The notes below the pieces were generated by a model. That model searched no databases. It worked only from the letters and a program-made list of their open reading frames with translations, and was not told the origin of the DNA. Below are positions 7,797-22,049 of a DNA stretch of 64,000 nt, piece by piece. Position 1 is the stretch's first letter; the number at the start of each line of letters is the position of its first letter. Source of the DNA: Alphaproteobacteria bacterium. GTDB taxonomy: Bacteria; Pseudomonadota; Alphaproteobacteria; Bin95. Location: positions 4,032,001-4,096,000 of the forward strand of contig CBDBGH010000003.1 in NCBI GenBank assembly GCA_965205265.1, given 5' to 3'. The translations under genes were made by a program, and so were the position numbers.

Positions 7797-8894
7797 ATGC
7801 CGACACCGCGCCCCAACCTCTCCATCGACGCCGAACGCCTCCGGGCCGCGCTCGACCGCTCCTCCGAGATCGGCGCCGGTCCCCGGGGCGGGCTGCGGCG
7901 CCTCGCGCTCTCCGACAGCGACGGGGAGATGCGCGACCAATTCGTGGATTGGTGCAAGGCCGCCGGCTGCCGGGTGACGGTGGACGCCGCGGGCAGCATC
8001 TTCGCCCGGCGCGCGGGCCGGGAGGACGGCCTGCCGCCGGTCATGATCGGCAGCCATCTCGACAGCCAGGCGTCGGGCGGACGCTTCGACGGGGTGCTGG
8101 GCGTGCTCGCCGGGCTGGAGGTCCTGCGCACGCTCGAGGACAACGGCATCGTCACGAAGCGGCCCGTCGAGGTCGTCAACTGGACCAATGAGGAGGGCGC
8201 GCGCTTCGCCCCGCCCATGGCCGCATCGCGGGTCTTCGCGGGCCTCGCGACCGTGGAGTGGCTGCACGACCTGACCGACGATGACGGCATGCGCTATGGC
8301 GACGAGCTCCGGCGGATCGGCTATCTGGGCGAAGCGCCGGTCGGGGGCCGCGAACTCGATTCCTATTTCGAGCTGCATATCGAGCAGGACTCCCTGCTGG
8401 AGGAAGCGGGCGTGTCGGTCGGCGTGGTGACTGGCGGCTATGCGAGCCATGCGCTCAACTGCGTCTTCCGCGGCGAGTGCGCCCATACCGGGCCGACAGA
8501 GATGAAGAAACGCCGGAATGCGATGATGGGCGCGGCCTATTTCCTCGCCGCCGTCAACGACATCGGCTGGGAGTACGAACCCGTGGGGCGCACCTCCGCC
8601 TCGCGGATGCAGATCTGGCCGAACCGCTTCGGCATCCTGCCGGAATACGCCGAGGTGACCGTGGACATGCGCCACACGGACCGCGCGGTGACCGACGAGA
8701 TGGTGGAGAAGACGCGCGCGGCGCTGGCGCGAGCCGCCGGGAGGGCGCAGGTCGAGGCTGAGGTCACCGCCGAGTGGACCTTCGGCGACGAGGCGTTCGA
8801 CCCCGAATGCACCGGCCTCGTGCGGCGGGCGGCCGAAGCGCGCGGCACCGCCTGCATGGACATGCGCAGCATCGCCGGCCACGACGCCTATTAC
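7797..8894 (+). pseudogene. M20 Zn-dependent hydrolase (N-carbamoylase / allantoate amidohydrolase type), 5' part, interrupted by insertion
   Basis: GSHLDSQ..GG.FDG, NEEGARF, FELHIEQ, AGHDAYY; then breaks off; remainder at 19839-19985. Confidence 0.9.
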
Positions 8895-9286
8895 CCGAAA
8901 TACGACAGAAGCTGGTTGCGGAGGTAGCACCGGTTCACATTGAGCGTTCCGGGTTTCCAGACATGCGCGTATCGCTCGAACACGGCCTCGGCTACGACCT
9001 CGAAGAGCATCTCCTCCGGCCGCACGGGTGCAGTCTCGCCCTTTCGGATTGCAGCGAGCGTCTCGATTGCATGGGACTTCGCCTCGGCGACGTTCGTGTT
9101 GGCGGCGTTGCCGATGAGTTTCCAGATGCGCTCGCCGCGATGCTGGCTCTGGATGAAAAAGCGTTTCCCGCCTGCGGGCAGGATGCGCACACCGAAGCCC
9201 CTGAGCCTGGCGTCCCGAACGTCATAGGCGGTCTTGCGCGGCCGCAACGCCTTGACGAGCGCGTCGGTTAGAGCGATCTTGGGCAT
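8895..9286 (-). pseudogene. tyrosine integrase N-terminal fragment (Arm DNA-binding domain), truncated at unit boundary
   Basis: LTDALVKAL, YDVRD..LRGFGVRI.P.G.K.F, IG......AEA; no catalytic domain. Confidence 0.8.
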
Positions 9287-9457
9287 GGTCTTCTCCCGGT
9301 TCCAGTGGCAATCGGGGAGCCGGAAGCTTCAACTCTGGCTCCGTGATCGCTACGTTTTCGGGAGATAAAACGACGCTATTTCAAATAGTTAGCACCGAAG
9401 GTGCGCTGTTGCGGTGTGACGATTTGGAATAGAGTCTCCCCAATCTACGGAGAGAAT

Positions 9458-11716
9458 TTGCCCCACTACGCACATAGCAGCGATCGGGACGAGTCGGAGT
9501 GGCATTCGCTGCGCGAGCATCTGATCGAAACCGGCGCACGAGCGTCCGGATTTCTCGAACCTGTGGGCTGTGGAGAGCTGGCGCAAACAGCCGGGCTCTT
9601 GCACGACCTCGGGAAATACAGCCGAGAATTTCAAGCACGACTGCGCGGCGGCCCTCCTTGCGACCATTCGACCGCGGGCGCCAGGGTTGCAATCGAAAGA
9701 TACGGAAATAGCGACGCGCGCAGAGCATCGCCCGGAAAGATGCTCGCCTTTGCAATTGCGGGTCACCATGCAGGCTTAGCCGATGGCGTAAACGGAACGG
9801 AGCCTCGGGCGCTGGCCGACCGACTGCAAGCCGTCATTCCGGAAATAGCCCCGGTATGGCAGCAGGACCTGAGCCTTCCCCAGCTTGCGCCGCCTCCGTT
9901 GAAACCGCGCGACAGGGAAATGGCCGGTTTCTGTGCGGCTTTCGCGACCCGCATGCTCTTCTCGGCGCTCGTGGACGCCGACTTTCTCGACACCGAAGCC
10001 TGGTATGCCGGTTGCGAAGGCCATCCGGCTTTACGTGGACATCATCCTCCGCTTGCCGGGCTTCTGGATCGTCTGGATGCCTATCTCAATGCGTTGATGG
10101 CGAGTGCTGACGATACCGAAGTTAACCGGGTGCGCTGTAGGGTTCTGGAGCGGGCCCGTGCGAAGGCGGCCGAAGCGCCGGGACTGTTCACCTTCACTGT
10201 GCCCACGGGCGGAGGAAAGACGCTTTCGTCGCTGGCCTTCGCCCTTGAGCATGCTGTGCGCCATGATCTGGCGCGTGTGATCTACGTCATTCCCTATACG
10301 AGCATCATCGACCAGACAACCCGCGTGTTCCGAGAAGCACTCGGAGCGGGAGACGGGGACCTGGCCGATTTTGTCGTCGAACATCACAGTGCTTTCGACG
10401 AAGAACGGGCCCGGAACCGGGAGGCCCGGGACAAGCTGCGGCTCGCCATGGAAAATTGGGATGCGCCGATAGTTGTCACCACCGCAGTCCAGTTCTTCGA
10501 GAGCCTGTTCTCCAACAGACCTTCCCGCTGCCGCAAGCTGCACAACATTGCGAACAGCATCGTCATCCTCGACGAAGCGCAGACTCTGCCCTTGGCATTG
10601 CTGCGGCCTTGCGTTGCCGCGCTCGATGAGCTTGTCCGGAACTGGAAGGCGAGCATCGTGCTGTGTACGGCCACCCAGCCGGCGCTCGCGGCGACGGACG
10701 GTTTCGTTGGTGGATTGACGGGATTGAGGGAGATTGCACCTGAACCGGCCGATCTGCATCGGCGTCTGCAACGCACCCGGATACGCCAGGAGGGAATGGT
10801 AACGGACGTGGAACTGGGCGAAAGGTTGTGCGCCGTGCCGCAATCGCTTTGCATCCTGAACACGCGCCGGCATGCGCGCGAACTCTTCGAAATGATCCGT
10901 CAGGCAACCGGAAGTGTTCATCTGAGCACCTTGATGTGCGCGGCGCACCGGGGCGAGGTGCTGCAAACAGTCCGCCACCGCCTTGCCGAAGGCGAAGCGG
11001 TGCGCCTGGTCGCCACGTCCCTGATCGAGGCGGGCGTCGATGTGGATTTTCCGGTTGTCTGGCGTGCAGAAGCCGGCCTCGAATCGATCGTGCAGGCTGC
11101 GGGTCGATGCAATCGGGAAGGCAAGGCGGCGCTGGGCGATGTCTTCGTGTTCGAGCCTGCAGAATCCGAGGGGCGGCGGCCTCCCGGCGACGTGTCCAAG
11201 CGAGCCGATGCCGCACGCCGTGTCATGCGGCATCGCGACGACCCGGCGATGCCGGAGGCGGTCCGCTCGTATTTTCAGGACGTGTACTGGATCGAAGGCG
11301 GTGGACTGGATCGGAAAGACATTCTCCGCGCTTTTCGTGAGCGCGCGAGGAGTTTCGATTTTCCCTTCGCAACCGTGGCCAGGGACTTCCGCATGATCGA
11401 AACGGGTATGGTCCCGATCATCGTTCCTTGCCGTTATGGCGCGCAATCACCGCCTAGGCTTCGAAGAGGAGACTGCCCCAGTGAGCCTGAATCCCGAGGA
11501 GAGAAACCCGGCCTACCGGCTCGGGCGCTTGTTTGCCGTTTACGAAGGGCTGCAGCGCTCAGCCCTCGGGAGCATCAACGCGACAATCAAGGATCGTTAT
11601 TTCGGGGCGGCATCGGCGACGCCGGCATCGGTTTTTCCCTTGCTGGAGCGGAATTCCGCTCATCATCTGTCCTCGTTGCGCAAGGGCGGCAAGGGCGGTC
11701 TTGCACATTGGTTTGA
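9458..11716 (+). CDS. cas3: type I-C Cas3 (HD nuclease + SF2 helicase); native C-terminus lost at about 11430 and replaced by an out-of-frame tail
   Basis: YAHS, LLHDLGK, LVDADFLDT, VPTGGGKT, DEAQ, TATQP, QAAGRCNREG; TTG start at 9458 after GGAGAG is inferred. Confidence 0.9.
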   Translation: MPHYAHSSDRDESEWHSLREHLIETGARASGFLEPVGCGELAQTAGLLHDLGKYSREFQARLRGGPPCDHSTAGARVAIERYGNSDARRASPGKMLAFAIAGHHAGLADGVNGTEPRALADRLQAVIPEIAPVWQQDLSLPQLAPPPLKPRDREMAGFCAAFATRMLFSALVDADFLDTEAWYAGCEGHPALRGHHPPLAGLLDRLDAYLNALMASADDTEVNRVRCRVLERARAKAAEAPGLFTFTVPTGGGKTLSSLAFALEHAVRHDLARVIYVIPYTSIIDQTTRVFREALGAGDGDLADFVVEHHSAFDEERARNREARDKLRLAMENWDAPIVVTTAVQFFESLFSNRPSRCRKLHNIANSIVILDEAQTLPLALLRPCVAALDELVRNWKASIVLCTATQPALAATDGFVGGLTGLREIAPEPADLHRRLQRTRIRQEGMVTDVELGERLCAVPQSLCILNTRRHARELFEMIRQATGSVHLSTLMCAAHRGEVLQTVRHRLAEGEAVRLVATSLIEAGVDVDFPVVWRAEAGLESIVQAAGRCNREGKAALGDVFVFEPAESEGRRPPGDVSKRADAARRVMRHRDDPAMPEAVRSYFQDVYWIEGGGLDRKDILRAFRERARSFDFPFATVARDFRMIETGMVPIIVPCRYGAQSPPRLRRGDCPSEPESRGEKPGLPARALVCRLRRAAALSPREHQRDNQGSLFRGGIGDAGIGFSLAGAEFRSSSVLVAQGRQGRSCTLV

Positions 11717-11891
11717 CGCCGAGATCGACGCCATTCTCTCGGGAGTCGATACGGCGTTCCCGCGCAGCTTCGGGATTGAAGACCAGGGACGGTTCGCTCT
11801 CGGCTACCACCATCAACGAGCGCAGAAGCAGCGCAATGCCGATCCTCAGGACGATTACCCCGAAAACCGCACCGAAGCGGAGGACCGATAA
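11481..11891 (+). CDS. cas11: Cas11c small subunit (3' remnant of cas8c)
   Basis: GAGGAG RBS then GTG AGC CTG; SL.P....PAYRLGRLFAV, INATIKDRYF..AS..P..VF..L, FP......QGRF.LGYHHQ = Cas8c C-terminal domain. Confidence 0.8.
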   Translation: MSLNPEERNPAYRLGRLFAVYEGLQRSALGSINATIKDRYFGAASATPASVFPLLERNSAHHLSSLRKGGKGGLAHWFDAEIDAILSGVDTAFPRSFGIEDQGRFALGYHHQRAQKQRNADPQDDYPENRTEAEDR

Positions 11892-12827
11892 GTGACTGCC
11901 ATCGAGAACCGTTACGATTTCGTCTATCTGTTCGACGTCGCCAACGGCAATCCGAACGGCGATCCGGATGCCGGCAATCTGCCTCGCCTCGATCCGGAGA
12001 CCAATCAGGGACTGGTCTCCGACGTTTCGCTGAAACGCAAGGTGCGCAACTACGTCGCTCTGGCGAAAGGGAACGAGGCAGGGCACGAAATTTTCGTCTC
12101 GGAGCGCGCCATCCTCGAACTCAAGCAAAAGCGCGCCTGGGACGCGGTGATTCCAGAAGCGACCGACAAGGACCGCGAGCGGCTGCCCAAGGACGAACGG
12201 AAGGCGCGCGAATTGACTCGCTGGATGTGCGCCAATTTCTTCGATATCCGGGCATTCGGGGCGGTCATGTCGACGAAGGGTGCCAATTGCGGCCAGGTCC
12301 GCGGCCCGGTGCAGTTCGCCTTTGCCCGTTCGATCGAACCGATCCTGCCCCTGGAGATATCCATCACCCGGATGGCGACCACCACGGCTGCCGATGCCGA
12401 CCGGCAAGGCGATATCCGCACGATGGGCCGCAAGCATATCGTGCCCTACGGCCTCTTTCGCGCTCATGGTTATGTTTCCGCCTGTCTGGCCGGAGACGGC
12501 GGCAAGGGTACCGGGTTCTCCGAGGACGATCTCGAACTGCTTTGGGAAGCGCTGGAGCGGATGTTCGACCACGACCGGTCGGCAGCCCGCGGCGAAATGG
12601 CGGCGCGGCGCCTGATTATCTTCCGCCACGAGAGCAAGCTCGGTAACGCGCCGGCTCACAGGCTGTTCGACCGGGTATCGGTGAAACGCGTTCATGACGG
12701 CGAAGAATACGAGCCGGGAGATCGGAGGACGCATAACCTGCCGCCCGCGCGGGCCTGGAGCGACTATGCCGTGCAGGTCGACGCTGGTGACATGCCTGCA
12801 GGAGTGGAGATCGTCGAGAGAATTTGA
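11892..12827 (+). CDS. cas7: type I-C Cas7 (Csd2)
   Basis: NRYDFV.LFDV.NGNPNGDPDAGNLPR.DPET, FFDIRAFGAVM, GQVRGPVQ, TMGRK.IVPYGL. Confidence 0.95.
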   Translation: MTAIENRYDFVYLFDVANGNPNGDPDAGNLPRLDPETNQGLVSDVSLKRKVRNYVALAKGNEAGHEIFVSERAILELKQKRAWDAVIPEATDKDRERLPKDERKARELTRWMCANFFDIRAFGAVMSTKGANCGQVRGPVQFAFARSIEPILPLEISITRMATTTAADADRQGDIRTMGRKHIVPYGLFRAHGYVSACLAGDGGKGTGFSEDDLELLWEALERMFDHDRSAARGEMAARRLIIFRHESKLGNAPAHRLFDRVSVKRVHDGEEYEPGDRRTHNLPPARAWSDYAVQVDAGDMPAGVEIVERI

Positions 12828-12830
12828 TCG

Positions 12831-13475
12831 ATGATGACGTCCCTCGATTTACCGATGGTTGCCGAGGACGACCTTGTTCCGATCTCGGCGCTCCAGCATA
12901 TGCTCTACTGTCCCAGGCAGTGCGCACTGATCCATGTCGAACGACATTGGCAAGAGAATGCCTATACAGCCGAAGGGCGCGTCCTGCATCGGCGGGTCGA
13001 TACCGGCGGCGGCGAGCAACGCAAGAGCATTCGGATAGAGCGCAGCGTGGCGCTGCGCTCGTTGCGCCTTGGCCTGTTCGGCATCGCCGATATTGTCGAG
13101 ATACATGCTGGTGGTACGCCTTATCCGATCGAATACAAGCGCGGGCGCCCGAAGGCGCACCGGGCCGACGAGGCGCAACTGTGCGCCCAGGCCCTCTGTC
13201 TGGAGGAGATGCTGGAAAGGTCGGTTGCGGAGGGCGCCCTGTTCTACGGCGCGGAGCGACGGCGAACGACAGTCTGCTTCAACGGCGAATTGCGGGCGCT
13301 TACCGAACGACTGGCCTCCGACACGCGCCGCATGATCGCGGCAAGCGAATTGCCCGATGCGGAATACAGTCTCAAGAAATGCACCGCATGTTCGCTGCAG
13401 GACGTGTGCCAGCCCCTACGCCCCCGCAAGCCGGGCAACGTGGATCTATGGCTGGCCCGGGCACTGGAAGAGTAG
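12831..13475 (+). CDS. cas4: Cas4
   Basis: ISALQH..YCPRQCAL, G.AD.VE, EYKRG, QLCAQALCLEEM, C..CSL...C.P; start could be 12855. Confidence 0.93.
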   Translation: MMTSLDLPMVAEDDLVPISALQHMLYCPRQCALIHVERHWQENAYTAEGRVLHRRVDTGGGEQRKSIRIERSVALRSLRLGLFGIADIVEIHAGGTPYPIEYKRGRPKAHRADEAQLCAQALCLEEMLERSVAEGALFYGAERRRTTVCFNGELRALTERLASDTRRMIAASELPDAEYSLKKCTACSLQDVCQPLRPRKPGNVDLWLARALEE

Positions 13476-13479
13476 TCCG

Positions 13480-14526
13480 CTGACCGTACGCCGTCACCTG
13501 AATACGCTCTACGTCTCTACCGAGAACGCCTGGCTCCGAAAGGACGGCGAGAATGTCGTCATCAGCATCGAAGACGCCGAACGCGGTCGTGCGCCCCTGC
13601 ACCTGTTGGGCGGCATCGTCTGCTTCGGAGCCGTCGGAGTGTCTCCGGCGTTGATGGGGCATTGCGCCGAACTGGGCGTGAAAATCTCGTTCATGGGCCG
13701 TAACGGCCGGTTCCTCGCCCGGGTCGAAGGACCCGTTTCCGGCAATGTGCTGTTGAGGCGGGCCCAGTATCGCATTGCGGACGACCCCGAAGCTGTCCTC
13801 GCCCTGGCGCGCAATCTGGTTGTCGGTAAGGTCTCGAACCAGCGCACCGTGCTTCACCGTGCGCTCCGGGACCATGCGGCGCGAATGACTCAAGAAGCGC
13901 AAAGCCGTCTGGAAGAGACCGCGCGCCGCCTGAAGGACGTTGTCCGCCGCGCCGTCCGCCCGGACTCGGCAGACGGTCTGCGCGGCCTCGAAGGAGAAGC
14001 TGCCCGTCTGTACTACGGGACTTTCGAATACCTCGTCAGGCGCGATGACACTGTGTTTGCTTTCCCGCGACGGTCCCGCCGTCCGCCGCTCGACCCCATG
14101 AACGCGCTGCTCTCGTTTCTGTATGCCCTTTTGGCGAACGACTGCCGCTCGACGCTGGAAACTACGGGATTGGACCCCGCGGTAGGATTTCTGCATCGGG
14201 AACGTCCCGGCCGTCCGAGCCTGGCTCTCGATCTCATGGAGGAGTTGCGTCCCGTCCTGGCGGACAGGGTAGCCCTGTCTCTGGTTAACCGTCGTCAACT
14301 GGGCTCGGCCGATTTCGAAACGGCGGTGAGTGGCGCTGTCTCCCTGTCGGATGACGCGCGCAAGGCTGTACTGACCGCCTACCAGGAGCGCAAGAGAACC
14401 GAACTGACGCACCCCTTCCTCAAGGAGAAGACAACCTTGGGTCTGACACCATTTATCCAGGCAACCCTGCTTGCCCGGCGATTGAGAGGCGATCTGGATG
14501 GCTATCCGCCGTTCGTCTGGAGGTAG
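13480..14526 (+). CDS. cas1: type I-C Cas1 (start codon non-canonical or uncertain)
   Basis: RRHLNTLYV, GNVLLRR.QY, LRG.EG.AA..Y, RRPPLDP.NALLSF.Y, GLDP.VGFLH..RPGRPSLALDLMEE. Confidence 0.93.
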   Translation: MTVRRHLNTLYVSTENAWLRKDGENVVISIEDAERGRAPLHLLGGIVCFGAVGVSPALMGHCAELGVKISFMGRNGRFLARVEGPVSGNVLLRRAQYRIADDPEAVLALARNLVVGKVSNQRTVLHRALRDHAARMTQEAQSRLEETARRLKDVVRRAVRPDSADGLRGLEGEAARLYYGTFEYLVRRDDTVFAFPRRSRRPPLDPMNALLSFLYALLANDCRSTLETTGLDPAVGFLHRERPGRPSLALDLMEELRPVLADRVALSLVNRRQLGSADFETAVSGAVSLSDDARKAVLTAYQERKRTELTHPFLKEKTTLGLTPFIQATLLARRLRGDLDGYPPFVWR

Positions 14527-14534
14527 GAACAGCA

Positions 14535-14825
14535 ATGCTGATGCTGGTCACCTATGATGTCGCGACCGGCGACGCGGCCGGCCGCCGCCGCCTCCGGCGT
14601 GTGGCGCGGCTCTGTCAGGACTTTGGACAACGGGTGCAGTATTCCGTGTTCGAGTGCCAGGTCGATGCCGCGCAGTGGACGGCGCTTCGGGCCCGGTTAC
14701 TCTCGGAGATAGACGAAAAAGCGGATAGTCTGCGCTTCTATCGGCTGGGCGCCAACTGGCGCGGGCGCGTCGAGCATATCGGCGCAAAGAACTCGTACGA
14801 TCCAGACGGCCCGATGATTTTCTGA
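14535..14825 (+). CDS. cas2: Cas2
   Basis: LVTYDV, RRLRRVA..C..FGQRVQYSVFEC, DSLRFY.LG. Confidence 0.95.
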   Translation: MLMLVTYDVATGDAAGRRRLRRVARLCQDFGQRVQYSVFECQVDAAQWTALRARLLSEIDEKADSLRFYRLGANWRGRVEHIGAKNSYDPDGPMIF

Positions 14826-15012
14826 CACCATGCAGCGCGAACCCCAAGCGAGCGTGAATTCCTCGGCGGGTTCGCGTTCGCCGCAACGTGTTGATTTCAT
14901 GCTACAGTTAGAAGCAGGCTTCAAGTGGAATCCAACCGTGCCCAGCCTTGGAACTCAGGTTCGCGGAAATGCTCGAATTCCGTGTTGTTTGACAACAGTA
15001 TAGATTGGCGAG
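14826..15012 (+). promoter_or_regulatory. CRISPR leader
   Basis: Between cas2 and repeat 1; AT-richer; GCGAACC...GGTTCGC inverted motifs. Confidence 0.75.
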
Positions 15013-15572
15013 GTCGCCCCCCGCGCGGGGGGCGCGGATTGAAACGGGTCCGACCCGCCCCTTGACCGGCGGGGCCTGGTCGCCCCCCGCGCGGGGGGCG
15101 CGGATTGAAACAGAAAACAGGACGGGCGGGACGCCCATCGCCGCCGTCGCCCCCCGCGCGGGGGGCGCGGATTGAAACGCGTAGCGCATGACATCGGCGG
15201 AAATCGTGCCGGTCGCCCCCCGCGCGGGGGGCGCGGATTGAAACCGTACACCGCTGAATTCGTGGCGAGCGCGATCTCGTCGCCCCCCGCGCGGGGGGCG
15301 CGGATTGAAACTCGCGGTATGACTCTCGAATTCGCGATGCAGATAGTCGCCCCCCGCGCGGGGGGCGCGGATTGAAACTGAAAGCATTCGGGATCGCTGA
15401 CGGCTTTGTGACGTCGCCCCCCGCGCGGGGGGCGCGGATTGAAACCCTTATTCAATCAGTGCGCACCGAGGGCGTCAAGTCGCCCCCCGCGCGGGGGTGC
15501 ACGTCCTGATTTTGCGAGGTTGAGAAATGCCATGGTTTCGCCACGATATCTGTTTCTTATATTTGGGGACAG

Positions 15573-16004
15573 ATGGAGGCGGACATGGCCAGGACCGATC
15601 ACGACGGCCTCGTCGAACAGCGTGGCGAGCTGCTGCGGGAGATTGCGGGCATCGGCGACCTCCGTCAGGGTTCGCTCAGGGCACAGTACCGCAAGTGCGG
15701 CAAACCGAACTGCCATTGCGCGGTCGAGGGGGCGCAGGGGCATGGCCCCTACTGGTTGTTGACTTGGCCGGACAGGGAGACAGGGAAGTCCCGCGGCCGC
15801 ACCGTTCCCGCCGACGCCATTGAGGGAACGCGGGCGCAGATCGCGGAATACCAGCGGCTTCGCGGTCTGGTGCGCGCGCTTGTCGAGGTCAGCGGCCGGA
15901 TATGCGATGCCAGGCTGGACGCGGACAAGCCGGCCGCGCCGGGAAAAAGGGGGGTCTCGACGCAGCGATCGCGGAGGAGGTCGAGGCCGAGGTCGAGTGG
16001 CTGA
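15573..16004 (+). CDS. IS ORF A, DUF6788-like Zn-ribbon protein
   Basis: GSL...YRKCGKPNCHC...GHGPYW motif. Confidence 0.75.
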   Translation: MEADMARTDHDGLVEQRGELLREIAGIGDLRQGSLRAQYRKCGKPNCHCAVEGAQGHGPYWLLTWPDRETGKSRGRTVPADAIEGTRAQIAEYQRLRGLVRALVEVSGRICDARLDADKPAAPGKRGVSTQRSRRRSRPRSSG

Positions 16005-17284
16005 TCGGCGCGGGCGTCGTCGATGACTTCCAGGCGATCGAGATCGAAGCGCGGCGGGTTGCGTTGCAGATCATGGGGCAGGCCGTCGCCCACAGGCTCA
16101 ATGCCGACCGTTCCGACAACCGGGGACCGTGGCTGTCGTGTGCGTGCGGCGGCGAGGCGCGCTTCGCCGGCCGCCGGCCCAAGACCTTCACCACCGCTCT
16201 CGGCCCTCTGACGCTGGAGCGCGCCTGGTATCACTGCGACCGTTGCCACCGCGGCTTCAGCCCGCGTGATCGAACCCTCGGCATGCAAGATACTTTCCTC
16301 TCACCGGCGGCGCTGCGCATGATCGGCGTTGCTGCTGCCCGTACCAGCTTCGAGGGCTCCAGCGCCCTGTTGCGCGAACTGGCAGGCCTGGCTGTCGCGC
16401 CGAAGACGGTCGAACGCCATGCCGAGGCGCTCGGGCGAGAGATCGCAGGCGACGAATGCCGCGTGATCGAACCCGAGCCGTCCGACGCCCCCACCCTCTA
16501 TCTCGGCCTCGACGGCACCGGCGTGCCGGCGCGCAAGACCGAGGTCGAGGGCCGCGCGGGCAAGCAGCCCGACGGCTCCGCCAGCACCCGCGAGGCCAAG
16601 CTCGCCGTCGTGTGGTCGGCGGAGACCGTCGACAGGGAGGGGCGTCCGGTGCGCGACCCCGGCTCCGCCACCTACAACGCCGCCATCGAATCCATCGCCA
16701 CCCGCGAGTTCGACCCCGAGCCCGCGCCCTTCGCCCGGCGTGTCATCCGCGAGGCCGAACGCCGCGGCTTCGACACGGCCGAGCGCCGGGTCATCCTCGG
16801 CGACGGCGCGCCGTGGATCTGGAACTTCGCCGATGAGCACTTCCCCGACGCCATCCAGATCGTCGACATCTTCCATGCCAAGGGCCACCTGTTCGACGCA
16901 GCCAAGGCGATCTACGGGACCGGCAGCGAGATCGGTGAGCGATGGGCCGGGAAGCGGCGCGAGGAACTCGACGAGGGCCGCGTCGACGAGGTGATCGCCG
17001 CCCTCAAGGGCCATGCCGAAACTTGCGAGAACGCCCGCAAGAACGCCGAGTATTTCACCAACAACCGCGAGCGCATGAACTACCCGAAGTTCCGCGCGAT
17101 GGGCTTGTGCGTGGCCAGCGGCGTGGTCGAGGGCGGCTGCAAGAACATCGTCGGCGCCCGCCTCAAGCAGGGAGGCATGCGCTGGACCGTCAACGGCGCC
17201 AACGCCATCATCGCCCTGCGCTGCGCCGTCGAGAGCAATCGCTTCGACGACTTCTGGGAACGACGAGCCGGCGCAATACCATGA
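15902..17284 (+). CDS. ISKra4-family DDE transposase
   Basis: C.CG...R.WYHC..C, LYLGLDGTGVP, REAKL, LGDGAPWIW, D.FHA..HL, SG.VEG.CK, RLK..GMRW. Confidence 0.88.
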   Translation: MRCQAGRGQAGRAGKKGGLDAAIAEEVEAEVEWLIGAGVVDDFQAIEIEARRVALQIMGQAVAHRLNADRSDNRGPWLSCACGGEARFAGRRPKTFTTALGPLTLERAWYHCDRCHRGFSPRDRTLGMQDTFLSPAALRMIGVAAARTSFEGSSALLRELAGLAVAPKTVERHAEALGREIAGDECRVIEPEPSDAPTLYLGLDGTGVPARKTEVEGRAGKQPDGSASTREAKLAVVWSAETVDREGRPVRDPGSATYNAAIESIATREFDPEPAPFARRVIREAERRGFDTAERRVILGDGAPWIWNFADEHFPDAIQIVDIFHAKGHLFDAAKAIYGTGSEIGERWAGKRREELDEGRVDEVIAALKGHAETCENARKNAEYFTNNRERMNYPKFRAMGLCVASGVVEGGCKNIVGARLKQGGMRWTVNGANAIIALRCAVESNRFDDFWERRAGAIP

Positions 17285-18138
17285 ATCTCACAAATGCGAC
17301 GTGCACCCCCCGCGCGGGGGGCGCGGATTGAAACGCCGATGACGATCACGGCGACATTGACGGCGGAAGGTCGCCCCCCGCGCGGGGGGCGCGGATTGAA
17401 ACGGGCGCGCCGCCCGGACAGCCGGTGCTGGCCATGTCGCCCCCCGCGCGGGGGGCGCGGATTGAAACCCCATGGCCAAGCGGCAGGAAACCCTCCTCAT
17501 GAGGTCGCCCCCCGCGCGGGGGGCGCGGATTGAAACATTTATACGCGCGATGGCGGGCGGTCGTGGAACCGGTCGCCCCCCGCGCGGGGGGCGCGGATTG
17601 AAACAGCCTCGATCAGCGCCGGGTGCTGGCGCAGGGGGTCGCCCCCCGCGCGGGGGGCGCGGATTGAAACATTGCCCAGCAGTGATCGGTGTGCGGAAAA
17701 CACCGGTCGCCCCCCGCGCGGGGGGCGCGGATTGAAACTGGTGCTGGAAACCGGCATCGATCCTGAGGCGCGTCGCCCCCCGCGCGGGGGGCGCGGATTG
17801 AAACGCTTTGCGTCCGGCGACGAATGCGGCGAATGGGAAAGTCGCCCCCCGCGCGGGGGGCGCGGATTGAAACGACACGACCATCTACGCCCGCCATCCG
17901 CTGTTTGGTCGCCCCCCGCGCGGGGGGCGCGGATTGAAACAGCCTCGATCAGCGCCGGGTGCTGGCGCAGGGGGTCGCCCCCCGCGCGGGGGGCGCGGAT
18001 TGAAACCTCCTTCCACGGGATATCCTCCCTGGAAGCTTTCGTCGCCCCCCGCGCGGGGGGCGCGGATTGAAACATGGGCCCCGGCGAGAAAATGGTGCTG
18101 CGGACTGGTCGCCCCCCGCGCGGGGGGCGCGGATTGAA

Positions 18139-19833
18139 CCTAAATCCGGCGGTTGGAGGGCGTGATCGCCCTCTCGGCGCGGTTGGAATGGTCGATTTCG
18201 GGTTCGATTTCAGCACGCTGGCGCGGCCCGAGGGGGCGGCAGCCAGGGCTGACGGCCCGGCTCGCGGCCGTGGAGGTATTTTTTGAGCGCTTCGGCGAGG
18301 ATCCGGCGCCAGCGATCCTCGGCGCTCAACTGCTCCGCACTTTGCCTCACGGTCCGGAAGAAGCCGGCGATCCGCCGCAGGGCAGCAGCCACCGCCTCGC
18401 GCCGCCCGTGGTGGGAGGTCACCGTCAGCCGGGGCTGGCCGGCGTGCCAGGTCTGGCGGGCGACGCCGTGCAGCAGCAGCGGCCGGCTGGTGATCGCCTC
18501 GCGGTGGCGCTCGGGACCGGCGAGGCGGACGAAGAGGCTCCACCAGTCGTAGATGAGCGCGATCAGCCGGGCCATGTGGCGGCAGCGCGTCAGGTCGTGC
18601 GTGGTGAAGCCTCCCCAGCCCCACTGGTTCTTCAACTCGTCGAAGCCGTTCTCCGCGTCGGCCCGGTCGCGGTAGAGCTGGGCCACAGAGCGCACCTCCA
18701 GATCGAGCGAGGTGGCCAGCACCGCGAACTCCCATACCCCGGTGCCGGGCTGCGCCTCGGTCCAGAACAGCTCGCCCTGGGCGGTGTCGCCGCGCGTCAG
18801 CGCCAGTGTCGCCGGAAGCCGGCGGCGCAGAACCACGGCCCGGCGCAACCGGCTCCAGCCCTGCAAGCGCAGATCGGCCCCGATCCCCTGCCAGCCCTGG
18901 CCCGCATCCTCCCAGCCGTCCCGCGCCATCTGCCGCTCGGCAAGCCGGCGCGCGCCCCTGGTCAGGCGCAGCTTGAACAGATAGTCCAGACCCGCCGCCT
19001 CGCACGACGCCATGTTGCCCTCGCTGCCCCAGTCCTTGTCCCCCCGCACCAGGCGCGGCCAGCGGTCCCGGCCGAGACGGTCCAGCAAAGCCCACAAGGA
19101 CGGCGCCGCCCGGTTCGAGCGGTGATGATTGCCCGGCGCAACCTCGACATCCAGAACCAGCCGCGTGCCCGCCATCAGGAACGCATGGCAGGCGTGCGAG
19201 GGACGGCCCGGCTTCTTCGGGTTGTAGCTCACCACCGCCCCCTCCTGGCGGCCGTAGAGCGGCTTGATCGTCGTGTCGCAGTCCAGAACCCAAGGCTCGC
19301 TCAGCAGCGGGCGGACCGTGTCGTCGAGATGGCCCTGAAGCCACGTTGTGCCCTCATCCGCCCCGGTCCGCTCCAGACCGCGCCGGACCGAATCCTCGCT
19401 CGCGACCTTGCCCATCCCCAACAGCGCCGGGTTCACCCCGTCCCCGCGCAGCGCCGTGATGTGCGCATGGCGAGACTGGCCCGCCAGAACCGAAAGCAGC
19501 ACCGTCCCCAGAACGTCCCGCTTCGAAGGCGCGTTCGGGCTCGTGTAGACGAGCGGGCAGTCCGCCACCAGCGCCTCGAAGCGACCGCTCACCTTCAGAT
19601 ATTCCGCGAAGAACGCCAGATGGCCAAGCGGCGTCACCGCCGCATCCGGGTCCCATTCGACGTGAACCGTGCCGCCGAAGGTGTCCACCTTCACAGCCTC
19701 GCAGGCGAGGTCCCGCACAGCGCCAGAACCCTCACCCGCAGGGTGACCCTCTCGGCCCCATCCAAATCCGCTCATACCCGCAGTCTACAAGGGCCACGGC
19801 GAATCCAGACCCCGATCAACTGCCGGATTTAGG
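18139..19833 (-). mobile_element. IS1380-family insertion sequence (1695 bp)
   Basis: IRs CCTAAATCCGGCGGTTG (18139-18155) and CAACTGCCGGATTTAGG (19817-19833), 16/17 match; single transposase. Confidence 0.88.
18210..19775 (-). CDS. IS1380-family DDE transposase
   Basis: LD.DTT..PLYG.QEG...YNP.K.GRPS, VRGD..WG, Y..RA.AEN.F.ELK. Confidence 0.88.
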   Translation of the reverse strand: MSGFGWGREGHPAGEGSGAVRDLACEAVKVDTFGGTVHVEWDPDAAVTPLGHLAFFAEYLKVSGRFEALVADCPLVYTSPNAPSKRDVLGTVLLSVLAGQSRHAHITALRGDGVNPALLGMGKVASEDSVRRGLERTGADEGTTWLQGHLDDTVRPLLSEPWVLDCDTTIKPLYGRQEGAVVSYNPKKPGRPSHACHAFLMAGTRLVLDVEVAPGNHHRSNRAAPSLWALLDRLGRDRWPRLVRGDKDWGSEGNMASCEAAGLDYLFKLRLTRGARRLAERQMARDGWEDAGQGWQGIGADLRLQGWSRLRRAVVLRRRLPATLALTRGDTAQGELFWTEAQPGTGVWEFAVLATSLDLEVRSVAQLYRDRADAENGFDELKNQWGWGGFTTHDLTRCRHMARLIALIYDWWSLFVRLAGPERHREAITSRPLLLHGVARQTWHAGQPRLTVTSHHGRREAVAAALRRIAGFFRTVRQSAEQLSAEDRWRRILAEALKKYLHGREPGRQPWLPPPRAAPAC

Positions 19834-19838
19834 ATTAC

Positions 19839-19985
19839 ATCTCGCGCATCGCGCCGACGGCGCTCATATTCAGCCCCTGCATCGGCGGCATCACCCACAA
19901 CGAGGCCGAAGACATCCCCTGGGAGCCGACCGTCGAGGCGGTCAATGTGCTGCTCGACGCCGTGCTTGCCCGCGCGGACCGGTAG
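19839..19985 (+). pseudogene. 3' part of the interrupted M20 hydrolase
   Basis: Reads ISRIAPTALIFSPCIGGITHNEAEDIPWEPTVEAVNVLLDAVLARADR*, the conserved C-terminus following AGHDA. Confidence 0.9.
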
Positions 19986-19996
19986 GGCGCCCGGGC

Positions 19997-20401
19997 CTAC
20001 AGGTAGTTCGAGACCTCGACGAGATTGCCGTCCGGGTCGCGGAAATAGACCGAGCGGATGGGGCCGAGCGCGCCGCTGCGCTCCGAGGGCGGGGTTTCGA
20101 TTTCGACGCCGCAGGCTTCCAGATGCGCGATGACCTCCTCCAGCGGCGTTTCCGCGATGAGGCAGAAATCCTCGCCGCCGCAGCGCGGATCGCGGGCGCG
20201 GTACCAGTCCGTATTGTCGGGATGCAGGTTGATCTTCTGCCGGCCGAAGCGGAGCGCCTTGCGCACGATGCCGTCTTGGCCGATGCCGTCCCGTCCGAAG
20301 CTGACGACCTCCATGCCGAGCGCCTTCGCGTAGAAGTCGCATGTGGCCTCGACATCCTTCACCCGCATCACGAAATGGTCCAGCCGCTCTATCCGTATCA
20401 T
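19997..20401 (-). CDS. VOC/glyoxalase family protein
   Basis: LDH.V..V.D.EATC.FY...LGM, QKINLH, GALGPIRSVYFRDPDGNL.E. Confidence 0.9.
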   Translation of the reverse strand: MIRIERLDHFVMRVKDVEATCDFYAKALGMEVVSFGRDGIGQDGIVRKALRFGRQKINLHPDNTDWYRARDPRCGGEDFCLIAETPLEEVIAHLEACGVEIETPPSERSGALGPIRSVYFRDPDGNLVEVSNYL

Positions 20402-20414
20402 CGCCGCCTCCGCT

Positions 20415-22049
20415 CTACTCCGGATTGCTTTCGAACCCGTCCAGCCGGTCGCGCTCGGCCAGTTCGGCGTTGCGCTCGGCGACCGGGCCGTAACCGCCCC
20501 CGCCGCCGGTGCGGACGATGAGCCGGTCGCCGCGGCTGAGCGGGAATTGCTGCTTCGAGCGGAGCGGAATCCGCTGTCCGCCGCGCTCGACGAGGGTTTC
20601 CGCCTTCGCGCCGGGGCCGCCGCCGAACAGGCCTTGCGCGGCGAAGCGGAACCGGTCTCCGTAAGTCGCGAAGGTCACGCCGTCGTCGAGAATCCGGTAG
20701 ATGCGCTGGAAGCCCATGCCGCCGCGCTGGCGCCCGCCGCCGCCCGAGGCAGCGCGCAGGCTGTAATCCTCGACCCGGAAGAACGGATAGTCGCTCTCCA
20801 TCGCCTCGATCGGGATATTCGAGCAGTTGGACAGCATCGAGTCCACCGCGTCGCAGCCGTCATTGCCGGGGCCCGCCCCGTAGCCGCCGCCGAAGATTTC
20901 CAGATAGATGTTGTAGCCGCGATCATGCTTGTGGCTGATGCAGCTCACCGTGGTCGTGTCGAAGCCGGGCGCGATCACCCTCTCCGGCACCGCGCCGGCA
21001 AGCGCATTCATCACCGCATTCACCACCCGGTAGCTCGGCAGCAGGCGGGCCCGCACCGGCGCGGGCGGGCGCGGATTGACGAGGCAGCCATAGGGCGCGG
21101 TCACCGAAATCGCGCGTTCCGCGCCCTCGTTGAACGGGATGTCGGGGTCCGTCAGCACCGCCTTGATGCAGGCGATGGCCGAGGAGACGGTGGAGGCGAA
21201 GGGGCTGTTCATGTTGGTGGCGACCTGCGGGGCGGTGCCCTCGAAATCCACCGCGATCGAATCCCCTTCGATGGTGAGCAGGGCCCGGACCGGCACGGGG
21301 TCCTCGCCCCGGCCGTCATCGTCGAGCCACGCCTCGCCCCGGTAGCTGCCGTCGGGCGCGGCCGCAATCGCGGCCCGGATGCGCCGCTCGGAATAGTCGA
21401 GCATTTCGTCCATGGCCGCGAACACCGTGTCCCGCCCGAATTTGCGGCAGAGGCCCTTCAGCCGTTCGCCGCCCACGGCATTGGCGGCGAATTGCGCGTT
21501 GATGTCGCCGATGGTGGCCTCCGGCATGCGCACATTGGCGCGCACCAGCCGCTCGAACGGGCCACCGTTCCAGTCCCGCTTGACCGACCAGCGGCTCGGC
21601 GGGAAGGTGATGCCCTCCTCGTGCACGTCGCCGGCATCCGGATTGAGGCCGGGCGCGCCGCCGCCGAGGTCTATGTGGTGGACCACCGTGGCCGTCACCC
21701 CGACCAGCGCGCCCTCCAGGAAGATCGGCGAGAACAGGAAGATGTCCGGCAGGTGCTGGCCGCCGGCATAGGGGTCGTTGTTGACGAGGAAATCCCCCTC
21801 CCGGAGCGTTTCCAGCGGGTGGTGCTCCAGGCAGGCGCGGAAGGTGTGCGTGACGGAGCCGAGCTGGATGGGGATGAGGTCGGCCTGGGCCACGACCCGC
21901 CCCTTGCGGTCGAGAATGGCGGCCGAGCAGTCCTGGGCCTCGCGCACCACCGGGGAATGGGCCGAGCGGATGAGCTTGATCCCCATCTCGTCGGCGGCCG
22001 CGACCAGCGCCTGGGTGATGACGGCCTGATCGACCGGCGAAACCTTCAT
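20415..22049 (-). CDS. hydantoinase B / oxoprolinase family subunit
   Basis: RSA.S.VVRE..D.S.A, NDPY.GG.HLPD, GG.G..RGG.G, T.GGGGYG. Confidence 0.9.
   Translation of the reverse strand: MKVSPVDQAVITQALVAAADEMGIKLIRSAHSPVVREAQDCSAAILDRKGRVVAQADLIPIQLGSVTHTFRACLEHHPLETLREGDFLVNNDPYAGGQHLPDIFLFSPIFLEGALVGVTATVVHHIDLGGGAPGLNPDAGDVHEEGITFPPSRWSVKRDWNGGPFERLVRANVRMPEATIGDINAQFAANAVGGERLKGLCRKFGRDTVFAAMDEMLDYSERRIRAAIAAAPDGSYRGEAWLDDDGRGEDPVPVRALLTIEGDSIAVDFEGTAPQVATNMNSPFASTVSSAIACIKAVLTDPDIPFNEGAERAISVTAPYGCLVNPRPPAPVRARLLPSYRVVNAVMNALAGAVPERVIAPGFDTTTVSCISHKHDRGYNIYLEIFGGGYGAGPGNDGCDAVDSMLSNCSNIPIEAMESDYPFFRVEDYSLRAASGGGGRQRGGMGFQRIYRILDDGVTFATYGDRFRFAAQGLFGGGPGAKAETLVERGGQRIPLRSKQQFPLSRGDRLIVRTGGGGGYGPVAERNAELAERDRLDGFESNPE

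Follow-up and report, generated by a model that had tools for sequence, protein, structure and literature searches.

A single IS1380-family element as the probable carrier of a decayed type I-C CRISPR-Cas locus in an alphaproteobacterial genome

The window analysed here is a stretch of 64,000 nucleotides from an alphaproteobacterial genome (G000:C3:4032001-4096000). This report concerns a 10,939-bp block in it, 8895-19833, which carries the remains of a type I-C CRISPR-Cas locus and whose right end is the left inverted repeat (IRL) of an insertion sequence (IS) of the IS1380 family. From left to right, the block contains a fragment of an integrase gene, cas3, a piece of cas8c, cas7, cas4, cas1, cas2, a presumed leader, a CRISPR array split by an ISKra4-family IS, and the IS1380-family element (Table 1). 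The DNA outside this last element, here called the cargo, covers 8895-18138 (9,244 bp) and has a G+C content of 64.5% vs. 68.1% for the genome. Judging from its ends, the block is very probably a transposable module (transposition unit) made by one IS1380-family copy.

The block is bounded by ATTAC on both sides (8890-8894 and 19834-19838). The left junction (8880-8910) reads ...GACGCCT ATTAC / CCGAAATACGACAG..., and the right junction (19810-19845) reads ...CAACTGCCGGATTTAGG / ATTAC ATCTCGCGC.... The gene on the left is an amidohydrolase gene: the open reading frame (ORF) 7797-8927 scores 285 bits on TIGR01879 (cut-off 204), and its native reading is lost at 8894. Excision of 8895-19838 in silico, i.e., of the block and one ATTAC, results in a 414-aa amidohydrolase ORF, which aligns end to end and without gaps with three of the four orthologues tested (90-94% identity); the fourth alignment has 34 gap positions. 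The block with its flanks (query 7800-20400) was searched against 41 genomes, G000 and 40 relatives. The flanks are contiguous by coordinates in 12 of the 16 same-genus genomes, and the right flank begins 3-5 bases before the left match stops. All seven relatives that were read at the sequence level (L004, L006-L011) have an empty site, ...GACGCCTA(T/C)TACAT(C/T/A)TCGCG..., with one pentamer, which is ATTAC in four and ACTAC in three of them. Because the relatives have contiguous flanks and a single pentamer, 8895-19833 is a true insertion with a 5-bp target duplication, and it disrupts the 414-aa amidohydrolase gene. In none of the 40 other genomes searched was the block found at the amidohydrolase position, nor was the same left boundary found in one that has no such IS. 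An earlier reading of the window, made from the letters alone (the sequence-only reading), had given coordinates for ATTAC, the block, IRL and the right inverted repeat (IRR), all of which are correct, and it had predicted an empty site with a single ATTAC, which the relatives have in the form A(T/C)TAC.

Table 1 Features of the inserted block and its target gene; coordinates are those of the window
Feature	Coordinates	Strand	Remarks
Amidohydrolase gene, 5' part, 366 codons (hydantoinase/carbamoylase family, allantoate-amidohydrolase-like)	7797..8894	+	TIGR01879; orthologues in relatives unbroken
Target-site duplication ATTAC, left copy	8890..8894	.	Single pentamer there in relatives
Alternative IR, imperfect IR-like unit end (11/14, 12/17 vs. 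IR)	8895..8911	+	Within integrase coding sequence
Integrase gene fragment, residues 1-131 of ~374, cut by unit end	8895..9286	-	Pfam Arm-DNA-bind_3
cas3, first 657 of 751 codons, then out of frame into cas8c DNA (listed ORF 9401-11716)	9458..11430	+	Pfam HD, DEAD and Cas3 C-terminal domains
Deletion junction, 2,342 bp lost: cas3 3' end, cas5, cas8c 5' part	11430..11431	.	
cas8c (Csd1) C-terminal fragment, 151 aa	11436..11891	+	Pfam Cas_Csd1 433-557 of 559; TIGR01863 453-580 of 588
cas7	11892..12827	+	Pfam Cas_Cas7 334.6 bits; sole genome copy
cas4	12831..13475	+	Pfam Cas_Cas4
cas1 (ORF as listed; Cas1 domain from residue 51)	13357..14526	+	Pfam Cas_Cas1 343.3 bits
cas2	14535..14825	+	Pfam CRISPR_Cas2
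Presumed leader, 187 bp, cas2 to first repeat	14826..15012	+	Position only; no match in locus A
CRISPR array, leader-proximal: 7 repeats and left part of repeat 8	15013..15492	+	None of its spacers in locus A
ISKra4-family IS in repeat 8 (ORFs 15573-16004, 15902-17284)	15493..17308	+	NF033572 294.6 bits vs. cut-off 205
CRISPR array, distal: rest of repeat 8, 11 full repeats, repeat 20 cut after ...GGATTGAA	17309..18138	+	Nine spacers (8 distinct) also in locus A
IS1380-family insertion sequence, 1,695 bp	18139..19833	-	IRR 18139-18155, transposase 18210-19775 (521 aa), IRL 19817-19833
Target-site duplication ATTAC, right copy	19834..19838	.	
Amidohydrolase gene, 3' part, 48 codons and stop	19839..19985	+	

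The words of 8500-9500 are represented at 0.95-0.99 in five public sequencing runs. Of these, X19, X21, X22, and X23, which come from three studies, were examined, and one of the runs may be the source of the assembly; metagenome entries with small shares did not enter the comparison. Contigs of all four runs bridge the left junction (8894/8895) with 0 mismatches; they are 1,127-12,140 bp long, and 949-1,043 bp of each lie on the compared stretch. An X22 contig spanning 18243-19964 bridges the right junction (19833/19834); its 16 mismatches all fall within the IS. The contig with the 3' part of the amidohydrolase gene starts 23 nt inside IRL in X19, 30 nt in X21, and 28 nt in X23, which falls below the 31-nt rule and is expected because the repeat breaks the contig. 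Hence, both junctions assumed by the sequence-only reading are present in contigs, the right one in one run. The junction upstream of cas3 in a sister locus (locus A, described below) is seen in X19, X21, and X23 as a dangling end at 9413. In X22, several stretches of the block have little or no contig cover and one contig departs from the window sequence near 10754, from which no inference was drawn. It is barely credible that the block is an assembly artefact made by misjoining IS copies, CRISPR repeats, and the duplicated cas3. The IS, the 2-kb cas3 segment, and the repeats are indeed all multi-copy and contigs break there, but the left junction joins two unique sequences and the bridging 1-12 kb contigs come from three studies. 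Moreover, the right junction is bridged or closely approached in every run, and swapping both joins between array and IS would still leave the two ATTAC junctions in place.

The element at the right end has the features of the IS1380 family, i.e., homology to a DDE transposase, a length of ~1.65-1.7 kb with a single ORF and short IRs, and a 5-bp duplication, and its assignment to this family is supported. The transposase matches Pfam PF13701 (DDE_Tnp_1_4) with 60.6 bits (cut-off 34.7) and also PF01609. Among the NCBIfam models, NF033539 (IS1380) is the best match with 142.6 bits (E 1.3e-41, model positions 8-418 of 419), followed by the next family with 39.5 bits; the family proposed by the sequence-only reading is thus retained. 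IRL and IRR agree at 16 of 17 positions and at 13 of the first 14. In plasmid records, one unannotated transposase shares 49% identity with it, and none of the 142 matching records reaches 60%. The clade is nevertheless very large: 7,960 of 8,000 scored candidates have E <= 1e-20, and PF13701 is present in all 120 listed relatives. The IR CCTAAATCCGG(C/T)AGTTG is found at IS ends across many Proteobacteria (loci L028-L142), with several occurrences per genome in Nitrosospira and Nitrosovibrio, and the clade is therefore widespread.

Five copies of the element occur in the genome, each 1,695 bp long and with 95.5-100% identity. As the earlier reading led one to expect, the four copies outside the window all have perfect 5-bp duplications (TTGAA, TTCAC, TTGAT, and TTTAT). 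Of the five, only the window copy has unlike flanks, TTGAA at IRR and ATTAC at IRL, and the copy in locus A has an identical flank at its IRR. The genome G005 carries an 88%-identical IS with perfect 5-bp duplications in six of the seven copies read. All pentamers seen have A at position 4 and mostly T at position 2, to which ATTAC conforms.

The two ends of the block are of different kinds. IRR (18139-18155) is internal: it abuts CRISPR repeat 20, whose sequence stops after ...GGATTGAA, and its flank is TTGAA, with no ATTAC and no target-duplication partner. The left end of the block is CCGAAATACGACAG, which matches the IR CCTAAATCCGGCAG at 11 of 14 positions, in the orientation of IRR and exactly at the boundary. 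It lies 3' of the transposase gene (18210-19775, minus strand), with the cargo on the IRR side. Both points had been made by the sequence-only reading and are confirmed here. Sites with up to three mismatches to the IR number eight in the 64-kb window on both strands, vs. 5.33 expected from shuffles, i.e., ~4e-5 per position and strand; the IR match at the left boundary is more than chance. When compared with the IRL version, the left end is the only such site on its strand from IRR to the boundary. The block thus carries a single IS, whose IRL forms one outer end, and its cargo extends from the IRR (3') side, with no second copy of the IS in or beside the block; the far end of the block is imperfect and inverted relative to IRL, and the 5-bp duplication belongs to the whole unit, while the internal IRR has none.

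The left end is at the same time integrase coding sequence. It is the reverse strand of ...CAG CTT CTG TCG TAT TTC GG, which encodes ...QLLSYFG (NQLLSYFG), and the reading continues past this point in full-length homologues of 373-374 aa, one each in G006, G010, and the same genome. A disrupted integrase paralogue in the same genome, open for 164 aa, also reads through it, and the G006 homologue has GCGAAATACGGCAG at this position. Because it is native integrase coding sequence and the homologues continue through it, the left end is not the remnant of a second IS. This bears on a composite transposon with two IS copies, the left one of which would later have been deleted down to its terminal repeat. 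Composites of a related IS do exist, as an 8.7-kb segment between inverted copies in G005 illustrates, but the left 14-17 bases of the block are integrase sequence collinear with homologues that continue onward, no other IS sequence lies at the left end, and only one IS copy is present; we regard this explanation as highly improbable. The G005 segment itself (L019 C1:832200-852199; L020 C1:572250-592249) lies between two inverted copies of the 88%-related IS and is present twice with the outer pentamers swapped; it is a composite element that was duplicated and then recombined. It was considered as a second one-ended module since two IS copies share the IRR flank, but the common 8.7 kb ends in another inverted IS copy, which makes it a composite.

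The integrase fragment at the block end might also suggest a genomic island that was inserted by its own integrase through site-specific recombination. However, only 131 of ~374 residues of the integrase are present and they are cut by the block end, no tRNA gene or Rfam family was found in 8000-20500, and the other end is an IS terminal repeat. In addition, the duplication is the 5 bp of the IS; the probability of such an island is negligible.

The mixed flanks of the window copy are also what two separate events would leave. A plain IS would have inserted at ATTAC in the amidohydrolase gene, homologous recombination with an IS in an array would then have swapped the IRR flank, and the left junction would have arisen independently by illegitimate recombination. 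The genome is rich in identical ISs and in rearrangements (5 IS1380-family, 11 ISKra4-family, and >50 IS1634-family copies), and an exchange between two ISs would yield exactly the flanks TTGAA and ATTAC. Such an exchange, however, cannot set a second ATTAC beside non-IS DNA 10.9 kb away. The left pentamer directly precedes the 11/14 IR-like sequence (~4e-5 per position), and removing the block and one pentamer restores the gene exactly. Two events are therefore very unlikely, and a module mobilized by a single IS is the reading followed below.

Regarding the cargo, the integrase fragment is 78% identical to residues 1-130 of the 374-aa G006 integrase. An 82-bp stretch between the integrase start and cas3 (9291-9372) has 90% identity with C3:2788287-2788368, a site ~200 bp away from a further ISKra4-family copy. 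We infer a cas3 start at 9458. The segment 9413-11430 is 100% identical to C3:3244630-3246647 in locus A (2,018 bp), and window 11430-11565, which directly follows the end of this match at C3:3246647, corresponds to C3:3248990-3249125; this defines the internal deletion of 2.3 kb. The remaining cas8c fragment opens with an ATG six bases past the deletion junction. In type I-C systems, the small subunit is reportedly translated from inside cas8c, and this fragment might still give it. The complete I-C gene set is not present in the window, which has no cas5, a cas8c reduced to a 151-aa C-terminal piece, and a cas3 that breaks off after codon 657 of 751. Hence, by its gene content, the cargo is a I-C locus by descent and not a complete or working CRISPR-Cas system.

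The array consists of 20 repeats of 33 nt with a spacing of 66-69, as typical of a CRISPR array; 17 spacers were listed by script, and the two beside the ISKra4-family IS were read by eye. This IS has ten further copies in the genome. Its position in repeat 8, the internal deletion, and the sister locus are features beyond those given by the sequence-only reading. Repeat-spacer units are duplicated inside both arrays: the window array has two copies of a 100-nt unit (17571-17670 and 17907-18006), and in locus A one spacer appears three times (L001:14192-14537), which indicates recombination between repeats. No spacer of either array has a near full-length match elsewhere in the genome that would point to self-targeting. 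Elsewhere in the genome, there is a second, unrelated cas4-cas1 pair (C3:3407837-3409516, ~34% identical to that of the window) as well as two identical Cas1-like genes (C3:5450841-5451500 and C3:3787012-3787671; 27% identical to the window cas1).

Locus A (L001, C3:3238001-3257000; CRISPR-Cas part at C3:3.244-3.255 Mb) lies 0.8 Mb from the window locus. Its order is a cut host gene, full cas3, cas5, cas8c to ~residue 492, an IS1634-family element, 23 repeats, an IS1380-family element, and 10 further repeats. This IS1380-family copy (C3:3252560-3254254) is 100% identical to the window copy and sits in a repeat of the second I-C array. It has TTGAA on both sides, and taking out the IS and one TTGAA restores the CRISPR repeat. 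The two loci have in common the identical IS, 2,018 + 136 bp of identical cas3/cas8c DNA (2,154 bp), and eight distinct spacers. The shared spacers are all IS-proximal, i.e., older, in both arrays, and the leader-proximal spacers differ. The order of the shared spacers is shuffled between the arrays, which is due to repeat-mediated duplications and losses.

Locus A has no cas7-cas2 and no leader, and its cas8c ends at ~residue 492. Apart from the overlaps, each I-C cas gene is present only once across both loci, and as judged from gene content, a complete interference complex is no longer encoded at either of them. In locus A, the IS1634-family copy (L001:11126-13043, C3:3249126-3251043) has no duplication and joins the middle of cas8c to a point just before a repeat. 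Elements of this kind (1.9 kb, IR CTGACTTCGACGGTTG, 551-aa transposase with 341 bits on NF033559) number more than 50 in C3, nearly all of them 100% identical, and the genome appears strongly rearranged by IS activity. Because there are >50 near-identical copies and the one in locus A has no duplication, a deletion between two IS1634-family copies would explain the loss of the cas8c 3' part through cas2 and the leader.

The sequence-only reading had suggested that the IS first landed in a repeat of a donor array, and locus A preserves this donor-type state: an IS in a CRISPR repeat with its own duplication. A junction of the form repeat...GATTGAA / IRR arises only by insertion into a repeat; the window copy has this junction, but the matching TTGAAAC is absent on its other side. 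Thus, the window block must descend from a locus A-type state, and not the reverse. That locus A itself was the donor is somewhat probable. Of the donor features predicted earlier, the array that continues past the IS was found (10 more repeats in locus A), but a full integrase beside cas3 was not.

On these grounds, we propose the following sequence of events. First, the IS inserted at TTGAA into a repeat of a type I-C array with IRR towards the cas genes, a state of which locus A is the surviving example. Second, as the product suggests, the transposase would have paired IRL with the IR-like CCGAAATACGACAG, 9,244 bp past IRR, in place of IRR. The stretch carried would have comprised the integrase 5' fragment, cas3 through cas2, the leader, the array, and the IS. 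Its entry into the amidohydrolase gene would have created the 5-bp duplication ATTAC that is typical of the IS. The donor would survive as locus A or its ancestor; since the donor state survived, the event should have behaved as copy-and-paste or used a sister chromosome. Third, the two copies would have decayed in a complementary manner. In the window copy, the cas3 3' end, cas5, and the cas8c 5' part were likely deleted, and the ISKra4-family IS entered repeat 8. In locus A, everything from the cas8c 3' end to cas2 likely disappeared at the IS1634-family copy, together with the leader and some spacers.

Several observations weigh against this proposal. With respect to the enzyme, the 142.6 bits on NF033539 are below the curated cut-off of 180, which makes the transposase a distant family member, and it is only ~25% identical (tblastn) to plasmid transposases annotated as IS1380 family. 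ISEcp1 is common in Escherichia and Klebsiella, and records of these genera are absent among the 142 plasmid records that match the transposase at E 1e-5. With respect to the ends, the IRR version of the repeat has another 3-mismatch site in the cargo (11486-11499, + strand) that was not used, and the end used is therefore not simply the first candidate. Short contigs do not distinguish the IRR/array junction of the window copy from the one in locus A, as both are flanked by the same repeat. With respect to the donor, present locus A is not the exact donor: a cut polysaccharide-deacetylase-like gene lies upstream of its cas3, it also has no cas7-cas2 and leader, and no cas3 was found with the rest of the integrase gene, its 3' part, beside it. 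A 17-mer over ATTGAA and the start of the IR was scanned against 596 Gb to see how general such insertions are. At least 115 loci in other genomes have the IR next to ATTGAA, many of them true IS ends, with ~70 chance matches expected; none of the 115 is listed beside a repeated CRISPR-like unit (flank test with a repeated 28-nt), and the window case so far has no second example. Finally, no transposition was observed, and the mechanism is read from its product.

Further traces of the donor were sought for the left 518 bp of the cargo (8895-9412). The genome has no other copy of it above ~72% identity, and two exact 30-mers from it gave no matches in metagenome contigs. The missing half might be an integrase C-terminal fragment at C3:4324648-4325334 (residues 146-374; 76% identity with the G006 integrase), but a group II intron-like element and unrelated DNA lie in front of it, and it cannot be tied to the donor. 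This putative 1.9-kb element, intron-like as judged from its start (GTGCGCC), has at least five copies, among them those in C3:4322700-4325334 and C3:2550166-2552108, and one is inside an integrase gene. The left junction of locus A (C3:3244634, L001:6634) cuts the conserved polysaccharide-deacetylase-like gene, whose other half lies 56 kb away in inverted orientation (C3:3188253, L027:2254) and is joined there to part of an AIPR (abortive-infection) gene. Both joins of the split gene carry TGGAAGGTGT. Simple inversion, a second module, and IS-mediated models were considered for this junction, and none of them fits.

The evidence concerns a single event, a relocation or duplication within one genome lineage; transfer between organisms is not shown. 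Accordingly, the claim that a CRISPR-Cas locus was transferred by one-ended transposition stands for a move within the lineage and does not extend to transfer between organisms, and the cargo is defective. We consider it unlikely, though worth stating, that this is the first example of a general route. In such a route, the preferred IS1380-family target NTNAN (here TTGAA) would lie in the conserved ...ATTGAAAC end of I-C repeats, and reading past IRR would bring whole CRISPR-Cas loci or other defence islands, as transposable modules, to new replicons including plasmids; this would provide a transposase-driven path for the horizontal spread and duplication of CRISPR-Cas. A further bold idea is that the two half-decayed loci still cooperate in trans.

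The module proposed here illustrates a simple means by which a bacterial immune locus can be relocated. CRISPR-Cas loci are known to move among genomes, and the vehicle is rarely pinned at base resolution. Since the donor-type state and the product both survive in one genome, the mechanism would be directly readable here. It would extend gene capture by the IS1380 family from resistance and catabolic genes to an immune locus, show that a CRISPR repeat can act as an entry point for an IS, and offer a worked example of reciprocal decay after duplication of a defence locus in an IS-rich genome.

In Tn7-like CRISPR-associated transposons (CASTs), plasmids, and integrative and conjugative elements, the CRISPR-Cas locus lies within a mobile element, and in CASTs, the CRISPR system guides transposition. 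Unlike in CASTs, the CRISPR-Cas locus of the window would play no active part and be carried by an unrelated DDE transposase, for which the array would only have been a landing site. In the literature searched, no description of an IS1380-family element, ISEcp1, or an ISPme1-type module carrying CRISPR-Cas was found, in agreement with the sequence-only reading, which knew of no described case of this route.

Insertion sequences that break CRISPR-Cas loci are known: IS6110 in the M. tuberculosis DR locus, IS1 and IS10 in cas genes, and an IS1380 element in the M. heckeshornense cas locus (PMC7820667, PMC10359306, PMC10333696). The situation here is similar in that an IS sits in a repeat and that ISKra4- and IS1634-family elements break the array and the cas operon. 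However, those insertions are described as inactivating or deleting, whereas here the IS would also have moved the locus to a new site.

ISEcp1 units (blaCTX-M, blaCMY, and others) are described as pairing IRL with an imperfect 14-bp alternative IRR, with 5-bp direct repeats and restoration of the target gene on removal (PMC4508618). The window unit resembles them: IRL is paired with an imperfect alternative IR, the flanks are 5 bp, and the target is restored in silico. It differs in cargo and host, and its transposase has no enterobacterial plasmid match at E 1e-5, which places it in a different branch of the IS1380 family from ISEcp1.

The alphaproteobacterial transposable modules (TMos) of ISPme1 (Paracoccus methylutens) and IS1247a (P. 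marcusii) are formed by a single IS1380-family copy that takes a downstream IR-like sequence as its end (PMC9330008, PMC3281130). IS1247 is listed with 1,672 bp, IR 16/13, and DR 5 bp (PMC3281130, Table 2), and in both ISPme1 modules and ISEcp1, the cargo is described as lying 3' of the transposase gene (PMC9330008, PMC4508618). The window unit likewise has one IS at one end, with 1,695 bp, IR 16/17, a 5-bp duplication, and cargo 3' of the transposase, the likeness being one of described features. In contrast to the TMos, which were caught on a trap plasmid, the window module is chromosomal with an empty site in relatives, its cargo is a CRISPR-Cas locus, and it was entered through a CRISPR repeat. 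By analogy with these descriptions, TMos are a closer precedent than ISEcp1. The proposed mechanism is thus ordinary for the IS1380 family; within the literature searched, what is new is the cargo and the point of entry.

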